In this document: positions 4,030 to 9,072 of the stretch, one piece after another
Layout of the letters: each line of letters starts with the position of its first letter
Numbering within the stretch: the stretch's first letter is position 1
Origin: Promethearchaeota archaeon
GTDB lineage: Archaea > Asgardarchaeota > Lokiarchaeia > Sigyniarchaeales > SOKP01
DNA length: 32,000 bases
Reading direction: 5' to 3'
NCBI GenBank assembly: GCA_030606485.1
Contig: JAUWGH010000004.1
Location: 300,001 to 332,000 of the forward strand
Notes under the pieces: model-generated
Database searches by the model: none
Told to the model about the DNA's origin: nothing
What the model saw: the letters and a program-made list of their open reading frames with translations, nothing else
Made by a program: the position numbers and the translations under genes

Positions 4030-6810
4030 TTATTCTAAAATTAGAACAGGTTTTCCAGGTAATGCTTGTTTAGCTTTTTTATGGTCAATTTGATCTTCTA
4101 AAAATATTTCAATATTACATTTAAACTTATCCTGAAAAGTTGGTTTTATTTCATTAAAAAAGTCCATTTCATCTTTTGATGTTAGGACTATTTTTGAATA
4201 TGTCCTAAGATTTTGTAAAATATTATTGGTGATTTGATTTATTTGTTTCCCAAATTTTTTCAATTCAGCGTCCTGCATAACTGATTTCATAATTTCTCCT
4301 TGATCTTTAGATTTTTCAATCAATGGTATTAATATAGAAAACAATTTGTATTTCCATTCGGTTGCAATTACAATTTTAATCAAAGAAATTTTTTGATCCT
4401 TTAAAATTTGTATTATATTTTTTACATCATCTATTGTGTTGTTCATTAAATTCCATTTAAAATCGTTTTCATCTGTTAGTAGATTTTTGTTATAGGATGG
4501 CCAAGTAGATATACTTAAGAAATCTTTATGACCAAGCATTTCCCATAATTCTTCTGTTATGTGTGGTATAAATGGATGTAAGAGCAGAAGCAATTTTTCT
4601 TGACATTCTTTATAGAGATGTTCAATAACACCATTTTTTTTATATTCTTTCAAATTTGGAATGAATTGAACAATTTCATTTATAGCATCACGTATTGCTA
4701 GATTATTCATATGCTCTGTAACAAATTTTATAGTCTTATTCAATTGGAATTCTATTAAATCGTCATTAATATTCCTTTTTTTCCTTATTTTCTCTAGAGA
4801 CTCTGTAAATAAATTCCATAAACCAGATACAAATTTATATGCAAAACCAACTCCTTGATCAGACCATTCCATTCCTTTCTCTGGACTTGCTCCGAATAAA
4901 ATGAAAAATCTAGTTGCATCTGCCCCATATTCATTCATAATTCCAATTGGATCAACGGTATTTCCTAGAGATTTGCTCATCTTAGCGCTTTTTAGAATAT
5001 ATTTCGTTCCACATCGTTTACATCTCTCATCATGCATTTCTGCTTTCATCGCAAAGGTATTACATTTTGAACAATATGGATGTGCTTTATTAATCATACC
5101 ATGTGTAAATAATCGTTGAAAGGGTTCATCATGTGAATGTAGCCCAAGATCACGCGCTACTTTTGTAAAAAATCTTGCATAAAGAAGATGCATAATTGCA
5201 TGTTCTATTCCACCAATATATTGATCAACATTTCCCCAATAATCAACAATTTCCTTTCTATATGGTAAATCTTTTACATGAGGATCACAGAATCTAAAAA
5301 AATACCACGAACTATCAACAAAAGTATCCATTGTATCAGTCTCACGCCTCCCTGGTTTACCACATTTTGGACATTGACAATTAATGAAAGATTCAGAAGT
5401 TTCTAAAGGGTTTCCTTTTCCAGTAAATTTAACATCTTTTGGTAGTTCTAATGGTAAATTCTCATAAGGAACAGGCACAACTCCGCAATCATCGCAATAT
5501 ATTATTGGTATTGGGCATCCCCAATATCTTTGACGGGAAATTAACCAATCCCTTAACTTATAATTAACGGTTGCTTTACCCAGCCCAATTTTTTCTAACT
5601 TTTTTGTTATCGCGTTAATCGCGGTTCGATTATCCATCCCATCAAATTCTTCTGAATTTACTAGGATGCCATCTGCCATATAAGCTCTTGTCATTTTATC
5701 CTCATTTAATTCATAATCAGGTGGTTGAATAACAACTCTAATCGTGATATTATATTCTTTTGCAAATTCAAAATCACGTTGGTCATGAGCAGGAACCGCC
5801 ATGACTGCACCTGCCCCGTATTCATAAATGATAAAATTTCCAATATAAATAGGAACTTTTTCTTTTGTCATTGGATTAATCGCATATTTTCCGATAAACA
5901 TCCCTTTTTTATCAACCTCAACATCCGTTCTTTCAAATTTATTCTGCTTCATAACATCAGTATAAAAAATTTCAAAATCTTTTTCATATTCAGTTCCTTT
6001 AACCCATTCGCGAACCCAAGGATGTTCTGGAGCAAATACCATAAAAGTTACTCCATAAAGTGTATCAGCTCTAGTTGTAAATATGTCGATGGTTCTTTCT
6101 TCTCCCACAATTGGGAATTTAATTATCGACCCCTCCGACCTCCCGATCCAATTTCTTTGCATAACTTTAACTTTTTCGGGCCAATCAACATTATTTAAGC
6201 CATTTAACAATTCTTCGGCATAAGATCTTATTTTTAAAAACCATTGGGTCAAAAATTTTTGTTCTACTTCTGAATTGCAACGCCAACAGTGACCACCTTG
6301 AACTTGCTCGTTAGCCAACACTGTTGCACATTGAGGGCACCAATTAATATAACTATCTTCCCGATAAGCAAGATCTTTTTCAAACATTTTCAGAAAAAAC
6401 CACTGGTCCCATTTAAAATAATTTGGATCGTGGCTATGAATGTCACGAGTCCAATCATAAGATAATCCTATGCGTTTTTGTTGATTTCTCACGATATCGA
6501 TGTTTAAATTGGTCCATTCCTCCGGATTCACTCCCTCGTCAATTGCGGCGTTTTCTGCAGGTAATCCGAAAGAATCATATCCCATGGGATAAAGTATTTG
6601 GAATCCGCACATTCGTTTGAATCTAGTAAATGCATCGCCAACAGTATAATTACGTAGATGACCTATGTGAAGTTTTCCAGAGGGATAAGGATACATTTCG
6701 AGTATATAATACTTTTTCTTTTTAAGATCTTTTTGTACTTCGAATATTTTTGCTTCTTCCCATTTCTTTTGCCATTTCTCTTCTATTTTTTGGGGGTTAT
6801 AATCATTCAT
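4030..6810 (-). CDS. leuS: Leucine--tRNA ligase, bacterial-type core with archaeal-type C-terminal domain
   Basis: LEMYPYPSGKLHIGH (HIGH), GYDSFGLPAENAAI, CP1 editing TTRADT and AVPAHDQRD, DWLISRQRYWG, YIGGIEHAIMHLLYARF, KMSKS, C-terminal ALPGKPVLILE. AGGA lies 4-7 nt before the ATG. Confidence 0.97.
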   Translation of the reverse strand: MNDYNPQKIEEKWQKKWEEAKIFEVQKDLKKKKYYILEMYPYPSGKLHIGHLRNYTVGDAFTRFKRMCGFQILYPMGYDSFGLPAENAAIDEGVNPEEWTNLNIDIVRNQQKRIGLSYDWTRDIHSHDPNYFKWDQWFFLKMFEKDLAYREDSYINWCPQCATVLANEQVQGGHCWRCNSEVEQKFLTQWFLKIRSYAEELLNGLNNVDWPEKVKVMQRNWIGRSEGSIIKFPIVGEERTIDIFTTRADTLYGVTFMVFAPEHPWVREWVKGTEYEKDFEIFYTDVMKQNKFERTDVEVDKKGMFIGKYAINPMTKEKVPIYIGNFIIYEYGAGAVMAVPAHDQRDFEFAKEYNITIRVVIQPPDYELNEDKMTRAYMADGILVNSEEFDGMDNRTAINAITKKLEKIGLGKATVNYKLRDWLISRQRYWGCPIPIIYCDDCGVVPVPYENLPLELPKDVKFTGKGNPLETSESFINCQCPKCGKPGRRETDTMDTFVDSSWYFFRFCDPHVKDLPYRKEIVDYWGNVDQYIGGIEHAIMHLLYARFFTKVARDLGLHSHDEPFQRLFTHGMINKAHPYCSKCNTFAMKAEMHDERCKRCGTKYILKSAKMSKSLGNTVDPIGIMNEYGADATRFFILFGASPEKGMEWSDQGVGFAYKFVSGLWNLFTESLEKIRKKRNINDDLIEFQLNKTIKFVTEHMNNLAIRDAINEIVQFIPNLKEYKKNGVIEHLYKECQEKLLLLLHPFIPHITEELWEMLGHKDFLSISTWPSYNKNLLTDENDFKWNLMNNTIDDVKNIIQILKDQKISLIKIVIATEWKYKLFSILIPLIEKSKDQGEIMKSVMQDAELKKFGKQINQITNNILQNLRTYSKIVLTSKDEMDFFNEIKPTFQDKFKCNIEIFLEDQIDHKKAKQALPGKPVLILE

Positions 6811-6894
6811 ATTTCCTTTTATTCCATTCCATTGTTTTTATTAAAATTATCCACATTTTTTCAATTTTATGAATTCTTTTTTTCAATGCTTCTT

Positions 6895-7018
6895 CGAACC
6901 TTTGAGCTTTAATTCTAAAGATATTTGCTGGAGATTAAGAAAGAACAAATCCATAGAAATTATTTATAGAAAAGAAGGCTCAGGTTCGTTCTCTCTCGAA
7001 TTAGAGCACCAATAAGAG
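6895..7018 (-). promoter_or_regulatory. Structured 5' leader of leuS with mutually exclusive helices (candidate attenuator)
   Basis: Hairpin 7018-6993; helix 6988-6978 with 6907-6895; competing helix 6997-6983 with 6952-6937; U-rich tracts at 6977-6968 and 6949-6937. All paired by hand. Confidence 0.65.
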
Positions 7019-7081
7019 TACCACTACTAAGAGTAATACAAATAACAATGCATTTTGTACTTTATTCATCAAGAGAGACAT
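7001..7081 (-). CDS. Putative leucine-rich leader peptide of leuS (MSLLMNKVQNALLFVLLLVVVLLLVL); alternative start at 7069
   Basis: ATG at 7081 and TAA at 7003-7001. 11 of 26 codons are Leu and 6 are Val; the last 15 codons are 9 Leu, 5 Val and 1 Phe. Same strand as leuS, ending 190 nt before its ATG. Confidence 0.7.
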   Translation of the reverse strand: MSLLMNKVQNALLFVLLLVVVLLLVL

Positions 7082-7104
7082 TATGGTAAATATTATAATT
7101 ACTA

Positions 7105-7112
7105 CTTTTAAA
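7105..7112 (-). promoter_or_regulatory. Putative TATA box for the leader-leuS transcript
   Basis: TTTAAAAG on the minus strand, ending 24 nt before the leader ATG, which is the canonical archaeal spacing for a start site at or next to the ATG. The region is very AT-rich, so chance matches are possible. Confidence 0.45.
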
Positions 7113-7276
7113 GATTATTATAAGATTTATAGGAAATTTATAAATTTAAATTAAATTAAGAGATATTTTTTGAAATTTTCGATGAGGATAATATTAAGAA
7201 GGAGTTTAACCATAATTTTTTCATTTACTTTATATTATTTTTAAATTAACATAATTATTTAATTTTAAAATATTCT

Positions 7277-8275
7277 ATGACGATTGGGAAAATTAGAGTT
7301 TCTATTGGTAGCGCCACGATTTTAGGATTTACTTCCATAAAACTCGAGAGTCCACCTACTACGATTTATATTATGACTTATAAGAAAGGAAAATGCATTG
7401 CAAATTGCGGTTTTTGTCCTCAAGCGAGAAATTCAAACAGTCCAAATGAAAAATTATCGCGAATCAACTGGCCGATTTTTCCTTTTAAGGATTTTTTAAC
7501 CAAATTGAAATATACTGCTTCTTTAAAAAAATTTCAGAGAATTTGTATTCAAACACTTAATTATGCCGAGAATTTGCAAGACTTAATTGAAATTATATCT
7601 GAGATTAGAAAAGTTACCAATATACCAATATCTGTGGCAATTCCTCCAATGTCTAAAGAAAGTTTAAGGGATTTAAAATTGTGTGGAGTACAAAGAGTAG
7701 GAATAGCATTGGATGGCGCAACACAAGAAATTTTCGAAAAAATTAAGGGAATAGGAGTTAATGGTCCGTATTTTTGGCGTTCTCACTTTGATAGTTTAAG
7801 AGATGCTTTAGATGTTTTTGGAAATGGACTTGTAAGCACTCATATAATAATTGGTTTTGGTGAGACCCAGAAAGAAACATTAAATTTAATTACAGAATTG
7901 CATAAGTTTTCTATTTTACCCGGGTTATTTGCATTTACTCCTATTGAAGGGACAAAATTTGAAAATATGATCCAGCCAAACATTAGTCACTTTAGAAAAA
8001 TACAATTAGGTAGATATCTTCTCATTAATGATTACAAGAAATTAGATGATTTTACATTTAATCAAAAAGGAGATATTATATATTTTAATTTAAATAAAAA
8101 AGAATTAAGAAATTTTGTTGATGAGAGTGAGGCCTTCAGGACTACAGGATGTCCGGGTTGCAATCGTCCTTATTATACTTCTAAACCTTCAGGACCAATC
8201 TATAATTATCCACGAAATTTAAATGAAAATGAGAAAGAAGAAATATATAAATTACTAGAGAGATTAGTAAATTAA
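7277..8275 (+). CDS. lipS2: Radical SAM lipoyl synthase subunit LipS2
   Basis: CIANCGFC (CX3CX2C) plus TTGCPGCNRP, matching the TxGCPxC(N/D)RP motif; adjacent to a lipoate ligase gene. The S1/S2 motif assignment is from my recollection of the literature. Confidence 0.85.
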   Translation: MTIGKIRVSIGSATILGFTSIKLESPPTTIYIMTYKKGKCIANCGFCPQARNSNSPNEKLSRINWPIFPFKDFLTKLKYTASLKKFQRICIQTLNYAENLQDLIEIISEIRKVTNIPISVAIPPMSKESLRDLKLCGVQRVGIALDGATQEIFEKIKGIGVNGPYFWRSHFDSLRDALDVFGNGLVSTHIIIGFGETQKETLNLITELHKFSILPGLFAFTPIEGTKFENMIQPNISHFRKIQLGRYLLINDYKKLDDFTFNQKGDIIYFNLNKKELRNFVDESEAFRTTGCPGCNRPYYTSKPSGPIYNYPRNLNENEKEEIYKLLERLVN

Positions 8276-8292
8276 TTATTAAGAGTGATATT

Positions 8293-9072
8293 ATGGATAT
8301 TTGGAGATTTTTACCATTAGAAATCAGAGATGGTTATTGGAATATGGCATTAGATGAGTCAATATTACAATCTTGTATTGAAAAAAAAACTCCAAATACG
8401 ATTCGTTTATTTAAATGGGATCCTTCTACGGTAACGATTGGATATCATCAGAGTGTTTCAGATGAGGTTAACATAGCTGTTGCTAAAGAGGAAAAATTTA
8501 ATATAGTAAGAAGGATAACTGGAGGAGGTACGGTTTTTCATGATTCTAAAGGAGAAATAACTTATTCAGCTGTATGTCCATTAAAATTTTTAGAGGAAAA
8601 GGGATTTACAAGAATGATAGAACAATATGAGATTATTACTCAAGGGATAATTGAAGCCCTTAGTAATTATCATTTAGGATCTGATAAAGGAGTTATACAT
8701 TGCCCTGCGATTTTTTTAGATGGAAAAAAGATCTCCGGAAATGCACAAGTTAGAAAAAGAGGATATATATTACAACATGGAACGATATTATTAAAAATAA
8801 ATCCTGAGTTGATGTATTCTGTATTAAAAGCTCCAAATAATGTTCCTACTAAAAAGATGGTGGCTTCAGTGTATGCTAAAGTAATTGGAATAAAAGAACA
8901 AATTCAAAATTTTAATGAAAATGAATTTATTTCTTATCTTATTAATGGTTTTGAAAAAACTTTAGGAATAAAATTGGAGAAGGGAAAATTTTCAAAATAT
9001 GAATTAGATTTAGCAGAAAAATTGGTAATAGAGAAATATAGTTTGGATAAATGGTTATACAAATATGAATAA
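8293..9072 (+). CDS. lplA: Lipoate/octanoate-protein ligase catalytic domain (LplA/LipM family)
   Basis: WNMALDE, IRLFKW, VRRITGGGTVFHD, KKISGNAQ and QHGTIL; no accessory LplB domain. Confidence 0.9.
   Translation: MDIWRFLPLEIRDGYWNMALDESILQSCIEKKTPNTIRLFKWDPSTVTIGYHQSVSDEVNIAVAKEEKFNIVRRITGGGTVFHDSKGEITYSAVCPLKFLEEKGFTRMIEQYEIITQGIIEALSNYHLGSDKGVIHCPAIFLDGKKISGNAQVRKRGYILQHGTILLKINPELMYSVLKAPNNVPTKKMVASVYAKVIGIKEQIQNFNENEFISYLINGFEKTLGIKLEKGKFSKYELDLAEKLVIEKYSLDKWLYKYE

Follow-up and report, generated by a model that had tools for sequence, protein, structure and literature searches.

A conserved two-state RNA leader with a small reading frame upstream of leuS in Asgard archaea

What fills the 466-nt spacer between leuS and a divergent radical-SAM gene (start at 7277) in the 32,000-nt stretch of Promethearchaeota DNA analyzed here (the window), and could it govern leuS? 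The leuS gene of the window genome is present as one copy only, of bacterial type, and an archaeal-type copy was not found. A preliminary description had drawn attention to apparently exclusive RNA helices at 6895-7018, directly behind a short Leu-rich frame, and had proposed that the position of a ribosome on this frame selects between them. Our preferred reading, to which we give a probability of roughly 0.6, is that 6895-7018 forms the core of a leader RNA that acts in cis on leuS and whose fold is set by ribosome position. The element itself is real, conserved, and two-state. Its parts and the gene behind it are listed here in the order of transcription.

7105-7113, minus strand: TATA box CTTTAAAAG, its centre about 27 nt 5' of the ATG of the small frame
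7001-7081, minus strand: leader reading frame of 26 codons plus stop, MSLLMNKVQNALLFVLLLVVVLLLVL (from translation)
7069-7077, minus strand: S1, CUCUCUUGA at codons 2-4 (paired in the consensus fold and in the MFE fold of the 271-nt leader)
6891-7007, minus strand: covariance-model match to the RNA core from S2 to S7 (model R1, 114.6 bits; model R2, 101.7 bits)
6983-6999, minus strand: S2S3, UCGAGAGAG-AA-CGAACC, the shared strand, which begins 2 nt past the stop codon
6968-6978, minus strand: pyrimidine/U tract CCUUCUUUUCU, 5' strand of the inner part of helix P2
6935-6953, minus strand: S4S5, UGGAUUUGUUCUUUCUUAA, 3' strand of the state B helix, with its first bases paired to 6932-6929 as hairpin P3 in state A
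6929-6932, minus strand: S6, UCCA, 3' arm of hairpin P3 (consensus fold and covariation analysis)
6895-6917, minus strand: 3' strand of P2, UAGAA..GCUC..GGUUCG, with S7 at 6900-6895 (covariation in 92 homologs)
4030-6810, minus strand: leuS, bacterial-type leucyl-tRNA synthetase of 926 aa (TIGR00396, 975.8 bits; Pfam)

The strand S2S3 pairs either with S1 and S7 (state A) or with S4S5 (state B), and leuS starts 84 nt past S7. All of the helices in the preliminary description lie where it had placed them, and the MFE fold of 7018-6895 on the minus strand reproduced its state A at -26.3 kcal/mol. The two folds are close in energy in the window (-29.1 versus -29.9 kcal/mol). Its expectation that the helices would outdo shuffled controls was borne out only in part, with z = -1.91 and 6 of 200 shuffles as good for the 124-nt stretch and z = -0.97 for the 271-nt leader. 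Thermodynamic stability by itself is barely above chance, and the support for the element is comparative, not energetic.

Comparison with relatives retained some of these helices and replaced others. The long-range helix CGAACC(UGAGC)/(GCUC..)GGUUCG (6988-6978 with 6907-6895) is conserved with clear covariation, and the helix of state B (6997-6983 with 6952-6937, duplex energy of -18.0 kcal/mol in the window) is conserved as well. The local hairpin at 7018-6993 can be drawn in the sequence but is not conserved; the partner of its 3' arm, GAGAG, is CUCUCUUGA at codons 2-4 (7077-7069) in the 271-nt fold and in the alignment, and this S1:S2 helix (P1) was paired in 95% of cells (14 sequences). 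The inner helix UUCUA/UAGAA is kept in a general sense, as a pyrimidine tract pairing with a purine tract in all classes. Its companion AUUUGUU/AGCAAAU is present in the window but is not kept in relatives, and the conserved hairpin at that site is UGGA(U)/(A)UCCA (6953-6950 with 6932-6929).

A search among 30 leuS loci of related genomes found the spacer to be common to two genomes of the same genus only, at 88-90% identity. DNA search of the family added one further (fourth) genus member and about 10 genomes of another genus, in which an element of 75% identity occupies another locus, flanked on one side by a receiver-domain gene and on the other by a gene for a 52-aa protein that is followed by fwdA (TIGR03121). 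The homology spans the TATA box to GGUUCG (S7) and ends exactly at S7. The covariance model R1 describes the 3' domain, and the weak full-length matches that it gave turned out to be diverged members of the family. With a second model, R2, the element was detected in 79 of 135 genomes of this Promethearchaeota family, mostly as one copy and in some genomes as up to three; the window genome has a single copy by R1 and R2. A pattern scan of metagenomes added 15 more distinct sequences, and all matches to the element pattern were in MAGs labelled Promethearchaeota. No match to R1 was obtained in 20 genomes from three other families of the order. Rfam gave no relevant match in the window at E values up to 10, T-box included, and none at the gathering score for six other loci. 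These leaders, about 100 of them in related Asgard archaea, form a family that is not catalogued, in which a tiny frame is combined with a two-way RNA.

The common anatomy, from 5' to 3', consists of a TATA box, an ATG frame, the purine-rich strand S2S3, the pyrimidine/U tract, S4S5, hairpin P3, and a purine tract with S7. Hairpin P3 uses the start of S4; the long helix P2 arises as the purine tract folds back on the U-tract and S7 on S3. The U tract (6978-6968 in the window) was found in all classes, and it both pairs and covaries with the purine tract 3' of it. No block of the family is better conserved than S4S5, and the blocks ACAAAUCC and GGAUUUGUUC are almost invariant across classes. 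In 92 of 92 copies a gene starts on the same strand within about 100 nt. In one genus, tandem leaders lie about 640 nt apart (L148 at 401-512 and 1044-1143; also L162, L117, L123, L130, and L140), each apparently ahead of its own small gene.

The preliminary description had named covariation in homologs as a check on its helices, and the pairs of state A do covary. Among the 14 closest sequences 94.3% of the state A cells were paired, and the covariation score was reached by none of 500 shuffles. For the P2+P3 structure in 92 homologs, in an alignment that was fitted to state A so that its counts favour that state, 87.3% of cells were paired (70.1% in shuffles), both-sided changes occurred in 13 of 16 pairs, and the covariation score was 0.535 versus 0.244, again reached by 0 of 500 shuffles; slid-partner controls scored at most 0.11. 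For state B, the same 14 sequences had 96.5% of cells paired, and they include one compensation (G-C to A-U) that disrupts the competing S1:S2 pair. Column-wise counts for state B in the 92-sequence alignment (75.7% paired, with a score reached by 54 of 500 shuffles) are uninformative because the register of the helix shifts between classes. Over the whole family, per-sequence duplex and strand-swap tests were used for state B in place of column counts: at least 12 bp formed in 89 of the 92 homologs with a median of -18.0 kcal/mol, and cognate strands gave -17.7 kcal/mol, compared to -12.7 for strands of other classes and -5.6 for shuffled partners. The corresponding values for P2 were -13.9, -8.8, and -6.6 kcal/mol. 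Diverged copies read by inspection carry matched strand replacements (GAGCGAA/UUCGCU, AAGCAAG/UUUGCUU, and AAGAUAG/UUAUCUU), and one genome has the matched replacement AAUACC/GGUAUU. Judged from these sequence comparisons, both pairings are maintained by compensating changes across the family. A terminator-like short hairpin between S2 and the start of the U-tract was considered and rejected, the stretch covarying by eye with the 3' strand of P2 and not with S2.

The small frame is a constant part of the element. It measures 19-30 codons across the family, ends in Val/Leu/Ile codons, and is open in 90 of 92 copies (about 98%); the other two frames contain 1.3-5.3 stops and are open in 0-9% of sequences. 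Indels within the frame are whole codons in an alignment of the two closest classes, and in every class the stop codon is either within S2S3 or 0-5 nt ahead of S2. The TATA box CTTTAAAAG is unchanged in 4 of 4 genomes of the genus and aligns with TTTAAATA of the sister class. Across the family the TATA centre lies 27-30 nt 5' of the ATG, a spacing kept despite indels, which implies a leaderless mRNA. Conservation of the encoded peptide is uneven. The frame MSLLMNKVQNALLFVLLLVVVLLLVL shows mostly synonymous or conservative changes in the four genus members, and conservation is coding-like in two classes and absent from the largest small-protein class. Peptides of the largest sister class lack hydrophobic character and are hardly conserved, with 753 nonsynonymous versus 97 synonymous differing codons and variation that is flat by codon position; the frame is still open there and has the same end point. 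A regulatory frame accounts for this unevenness better than a functional peptide does. By eye, the opening codons are complementary to the closing ones in several classes (e.g., AAUAAGACUGC/GCAGUUUUAUU), and RNA pairing may lie behind part of the apparent peptide conservation.

The frame of the window leader has 11 Leu among its 26 codons. Mean Leu counts in the last 10 codons were 5.3-6.2 for leuS leaders, 5.6 for the leader of the 52-aa gene, and 1-2 for the leaders of g2 small-protein, FrhB-like, and ilvE-like genes. Leu-rich frames are, accordingly to these counts, not confined to leuS, since they also precede the 52-aa gene upstream of fwdA. The genes found behind the leader are these.

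About 32 genomes of three genera: archaeal-type leuS, 31-63 nt past S7
Window genus (4 genomes) and one genome of another genus, the latter with a leader of a different sub-type: bacterial-type leuS
About 37 distinct copies, those before the 52-aa gene included: small proteins with YLDY/FFxPAE motifs
About 29 copies: small proteins of unknown function, of one type
Three copies: FrhB/TrmB-like gene
One copy: class-IV aminotransferase (ilvE-like)

The scaffold is not leuS-specific, as it is also found before small-protein, FrhB-like, and aminotransferase genes, and the small-protein and FrhB/TrmB-like genes behind it have no known leucine link. Many relatives possess both LeuRS types (L101, L104, L171, and L172), and in these the leader accompanies the archaeal-type gene and is missing from the bacterial-type one; the element was absent from 27 other bacterial-type leuS loci. 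By a rough estimate that assumes two leuS genes per about 3,500 genes, two or three separate recruitments to leuS among about eight contexts would be far beyond chance (<1e-5). The commonest gene behind the leader encodes a protein of 45-80 aa with DWAKYLDYTxFFxPAE or FFxPAExY motifs (L069:1649-1807, L079:1611-1847, L122, L134, L159, and L163), and fwdA is next in one genus. Neither this protein family nor the 52-aa protein yielded a lead in Pfam, NCBIfam, or Atlas. The aminotransferase (L132, genome G052) is ilvE-like, i.e., class-IV and of branched-chain type, and its leader frame is rich in Ile/Ala/Val. The three FrhB/TrmB-like genes (L145, L167, and L168) encode an FrhB/FdhB-like iron-sulfur protein fused to a TrmB-type DNA-binding domain and follow leader frames rich in Ile/Val/Leu.

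Several other features of the window surround the leader. A 38-nt AT-rich inverted repeat (about 89% self-complementary, 7236-7272) adjoins the start of the divergent radical-SAM gene. The divergent neighbours (7277-9072, plus strand) encode a radical-SAM protein (PF04055) and a lipoate-protein ligase A/B-type protein (PF21948), and they may form a lipoylation pair. On the other side, a TTG frame of 27 codons (6803-6886, minus strand) runs from just past S7 to a TGA that overlaps leuS codons 2-3; it is probably not a conserved second upstream frame, given its early stops in two genus members. A motif within it, AAAAAGAAUUCA..AUUGAAA, is similar to the spacer before archaeal-type leuS. A C/D-box small RNA was also considered here and rejected, as UGAUGA...CUGA is not kept in the sister class.

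We investigated how a ribosome on the frame would influence the fold by masking parts of the RNA. Folding in the absence of a ribosome gave S1:S2 together with state A at -49.2 kcal/mol, and masking of 7018-6991, as by a ribosome on the stop codon, also gave state A. When S2 was free and S1, in the 5' part of the frame, was unavailable, state B formed once S5 had been transcribed (-16.2 kcal/mol), before S7 exists. The proposal that ribosome position selects the fold was thus upheld as far as mask folding goes, but no terminator-like hairpin was found in the leader, which is not a classical 1:2/2:3/3:4 attenuator. In the mechanism that we propose, transcription would start at or beside the ATG of the 26-codon frame to give a leaderless mRNA. 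In state A, S2 would pair back to codons 2-4 (S1) while S3 and the distant S7 close the long helix that carries P3; in state B, S2S3 and the nearby S4S5 would form one 15-bp helix. The choice would be decided by the place of the first ribosome as S4S5 emerges from the polymerase. A ribosome on the stop codon would cover S2, or, with no ribosome, S1 would hold S2, and state A would result from either situation. A ribosome stalled earlier, for example at Leu codons when charged tRNA-Leu is short, would leave S2S3 free and parted from S1, and state B would form. By footprint geometry, only a ribosome at the stop or last codon covers S2; under the assumed geometry, a stall at Leu codons 16-18 or 22-24 would leave S2 free. 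We infer translation of the frame and a choice of fold made by the place of the ribosome; leucine supply would be the signal, which is plausible, and state B would be the "on" state.

The step from fold to expression was sought in termination and in translation. No terminator-like site (hairpin plus U-run) was found in 6700-7400 after either fold. The sole U-tract (6978-6968) is located 5' of S4-S7 and forms one strand of P2; it is the only candidate for an archaeal termination signal. It is predicted to be paired in state A and looped out in state B, and one may speculate that this difference might affect factor-dependent termination or cleavage. Thermodynamic modelling gave unpaired probabilities of the Shine-Dalgarno sequence in states A and B of 0.58 and 0.57 in the window, 0.58 and 0.51 in the g11 class before the 52-aa gene (19 sequences), and 0.66 and 0.66 in the g2 small-protein class (20 sequences). 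Control by Shine-Dalgarno occlusion is not supported by these predictions, in which access is alike in both folds. The A-rich 84-nt spacer could hold a promoter of leuS itself.

Several other readings of the locus were weighed against the one above. Chance complementarity in low-complexity, AT-rich intergenic DNA would accommodate the modest z-scores (-1.9 and -1.0), but it does not account for about 100 homologs with covariation or for a 75%-identical copy in another genus at another locus; on the comparative sequence data it is already refuted, and we give it practically no weight. It is very improbable that the element is a stand-alone small RNA, possibly trans-acting, that ends at the U-tract or after S7 and whose proximity to leuS has no regulatory meaning. 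The separate promoter, the structural conservation, and the presence of one copy in most genomes count in favour of such an RNA, but strict co-orientation with and closeness to a downstream gene in 92 of 92 copies and at least eight distinct contexts would not be expected of it, nor would a homology that stops exactly at S7 with no U-tract past S7. An RNA switch independent of translation (a riboswitch, or a protein or tRNA site), with a bound factor choosing between the folds and the frame serving mainly as a 5' hairpin of the RNA, is in our judgment unlikely. The near-invariant blocks ACAAAUCC and GGAUUUGUUC are as expected of a binding site, complementarity of first and last codons could explain part of the peptide conservation, and so varied a set of downstream genes points to a shared signal and not to a single amino acid. 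However, a frame of 19-30 codons stays open in about 98% of copies in AT-rich sequence whose other frames have stops, its ATG lies at leaderless distance from the TATA box, and its stop codon always abuts or lies inside S2S3; none of these three properties is required by a pure RNA switch, and neither a riboswitch nor a T-box match was obtained from Rfam.

The frame might alternatively be an independent gene for a 26-residue membrane peptide, possibly type I toxin-like, with the RNA as a structured 3' UTR bearing a U-tract terminator and with leuS merely the next gene. The peptide does resemble a single membrane helix with a short polar head and a hydrophobic tail, the second codon position is the most conserved in a sister class, keeping the product hydrophobic, and the putative gene would have its own TATA box and a U-tract about 25 nt past its stop. 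Pairing between the start and the end of the mRNA is known for type I toxin mRNAs, and S1:S2 resembles it. When hydrophobicity was compared across classes, however, it was found in the window and the sister class and not in the largest related class, where hardly conserved peptides accompany a frame that remains open with the same end. The most conserved parts of the element lie beyond the U-tract, and all copies are co-oriented with a downstream gene at most about 100 nt away, leuS being a recurrent one. We therefore consider this explanation distinctly unlikely, and return to the ribosome-read leader. A wider version of that reading, which we offer tentatively and with the odds somewhat against it, is that the element is an archaea-native sensor read by ribosomes, a modular scaffold plus leaderless mini-frame placed independently before two unrelated leuS types and an ilvE-like gene, that would report charged tRNA-Leu or branched-chain tRNAs, state B raising expression by means other than a bacterial-type terminator hairpin.

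Attenuation by leader peptides is well known from bacterial textbooks. Archaeal transcription is coupled to translation, but its termination differs from that of bacteria. As in trpL, leuL, ilvL, and hisL, the ribosome position on the leader frame here would pick between competing pairings, and no translation and full translation would lead to the same fold while a stall leads to the other. Unlike those leaders, the present one has no Rfam match, no 3:4 terminator, and a leaderless mRNA, and its shared strand follows the stop codon instead of being part of the frame. The ermCL/ermC, cat, and cmlA leaders share with the proposed mechanism the re-pairing of four RNA segments by a stalled ribosome with no transcription terminator involved; their last segment contains the ribosome-binding site of the regulated gene, whereas predicted Shine-Dalgarno access is equal in our two folds, and no drug-dependent stalling peptide motif is evident here. 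T-box leaders of Gram-positive synthetase genes likewise place a structured leader with alternative helices before aminoacyl-tRNA synthetase or amino-acid genes, but they lack the conserved, translated-looking frame that is present in this element, which has no Rfam match. Close counterparts are the bacterial leader-peptide attenuators of synthetase genes (E. coli pheM-pheST and, as predicted, Streptomyces leuS and trpS), in which a short frame rich in cognate codons and then exclusive helices also precede the synthetase gene, one Streptomyces case being leuS, as here. The leaders predicted for Streptomyces leuS and trpS close with a terminator hairpin and its poly-U run (PMC1262725). In our leader neither fold ends in such a hairpin, and the U-tract forms an inner strand of the long helix; its host is archaeal, and the scaffold also stands before genes unrelated to leucine. 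The logic is that of bacterial leader-peptide attenuation, but we do not class the element as a member because the defining terminator is absent. A search of full-text literature found no report of leader-peptide attenuation for Asgard archaea or for archaeal synthetase genes.

The element is thus a strong candidate for bacterial-style, ribosome-read gene control in archaea. For annotation, the leader accounts for the long "empty" spacer 5' of leuS, and the family brings a group of uncharacterized small proteins under the control proposed for leuS. Its roughly 100 members are naturally occurring variants whose changes compensate one another, and with the covariance model they point to clear mutations for testing. 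If ribosomes do read this conserved leader with its two states, it would reveal how the logic of attenuation operates in the absence of a terminator hairpin.
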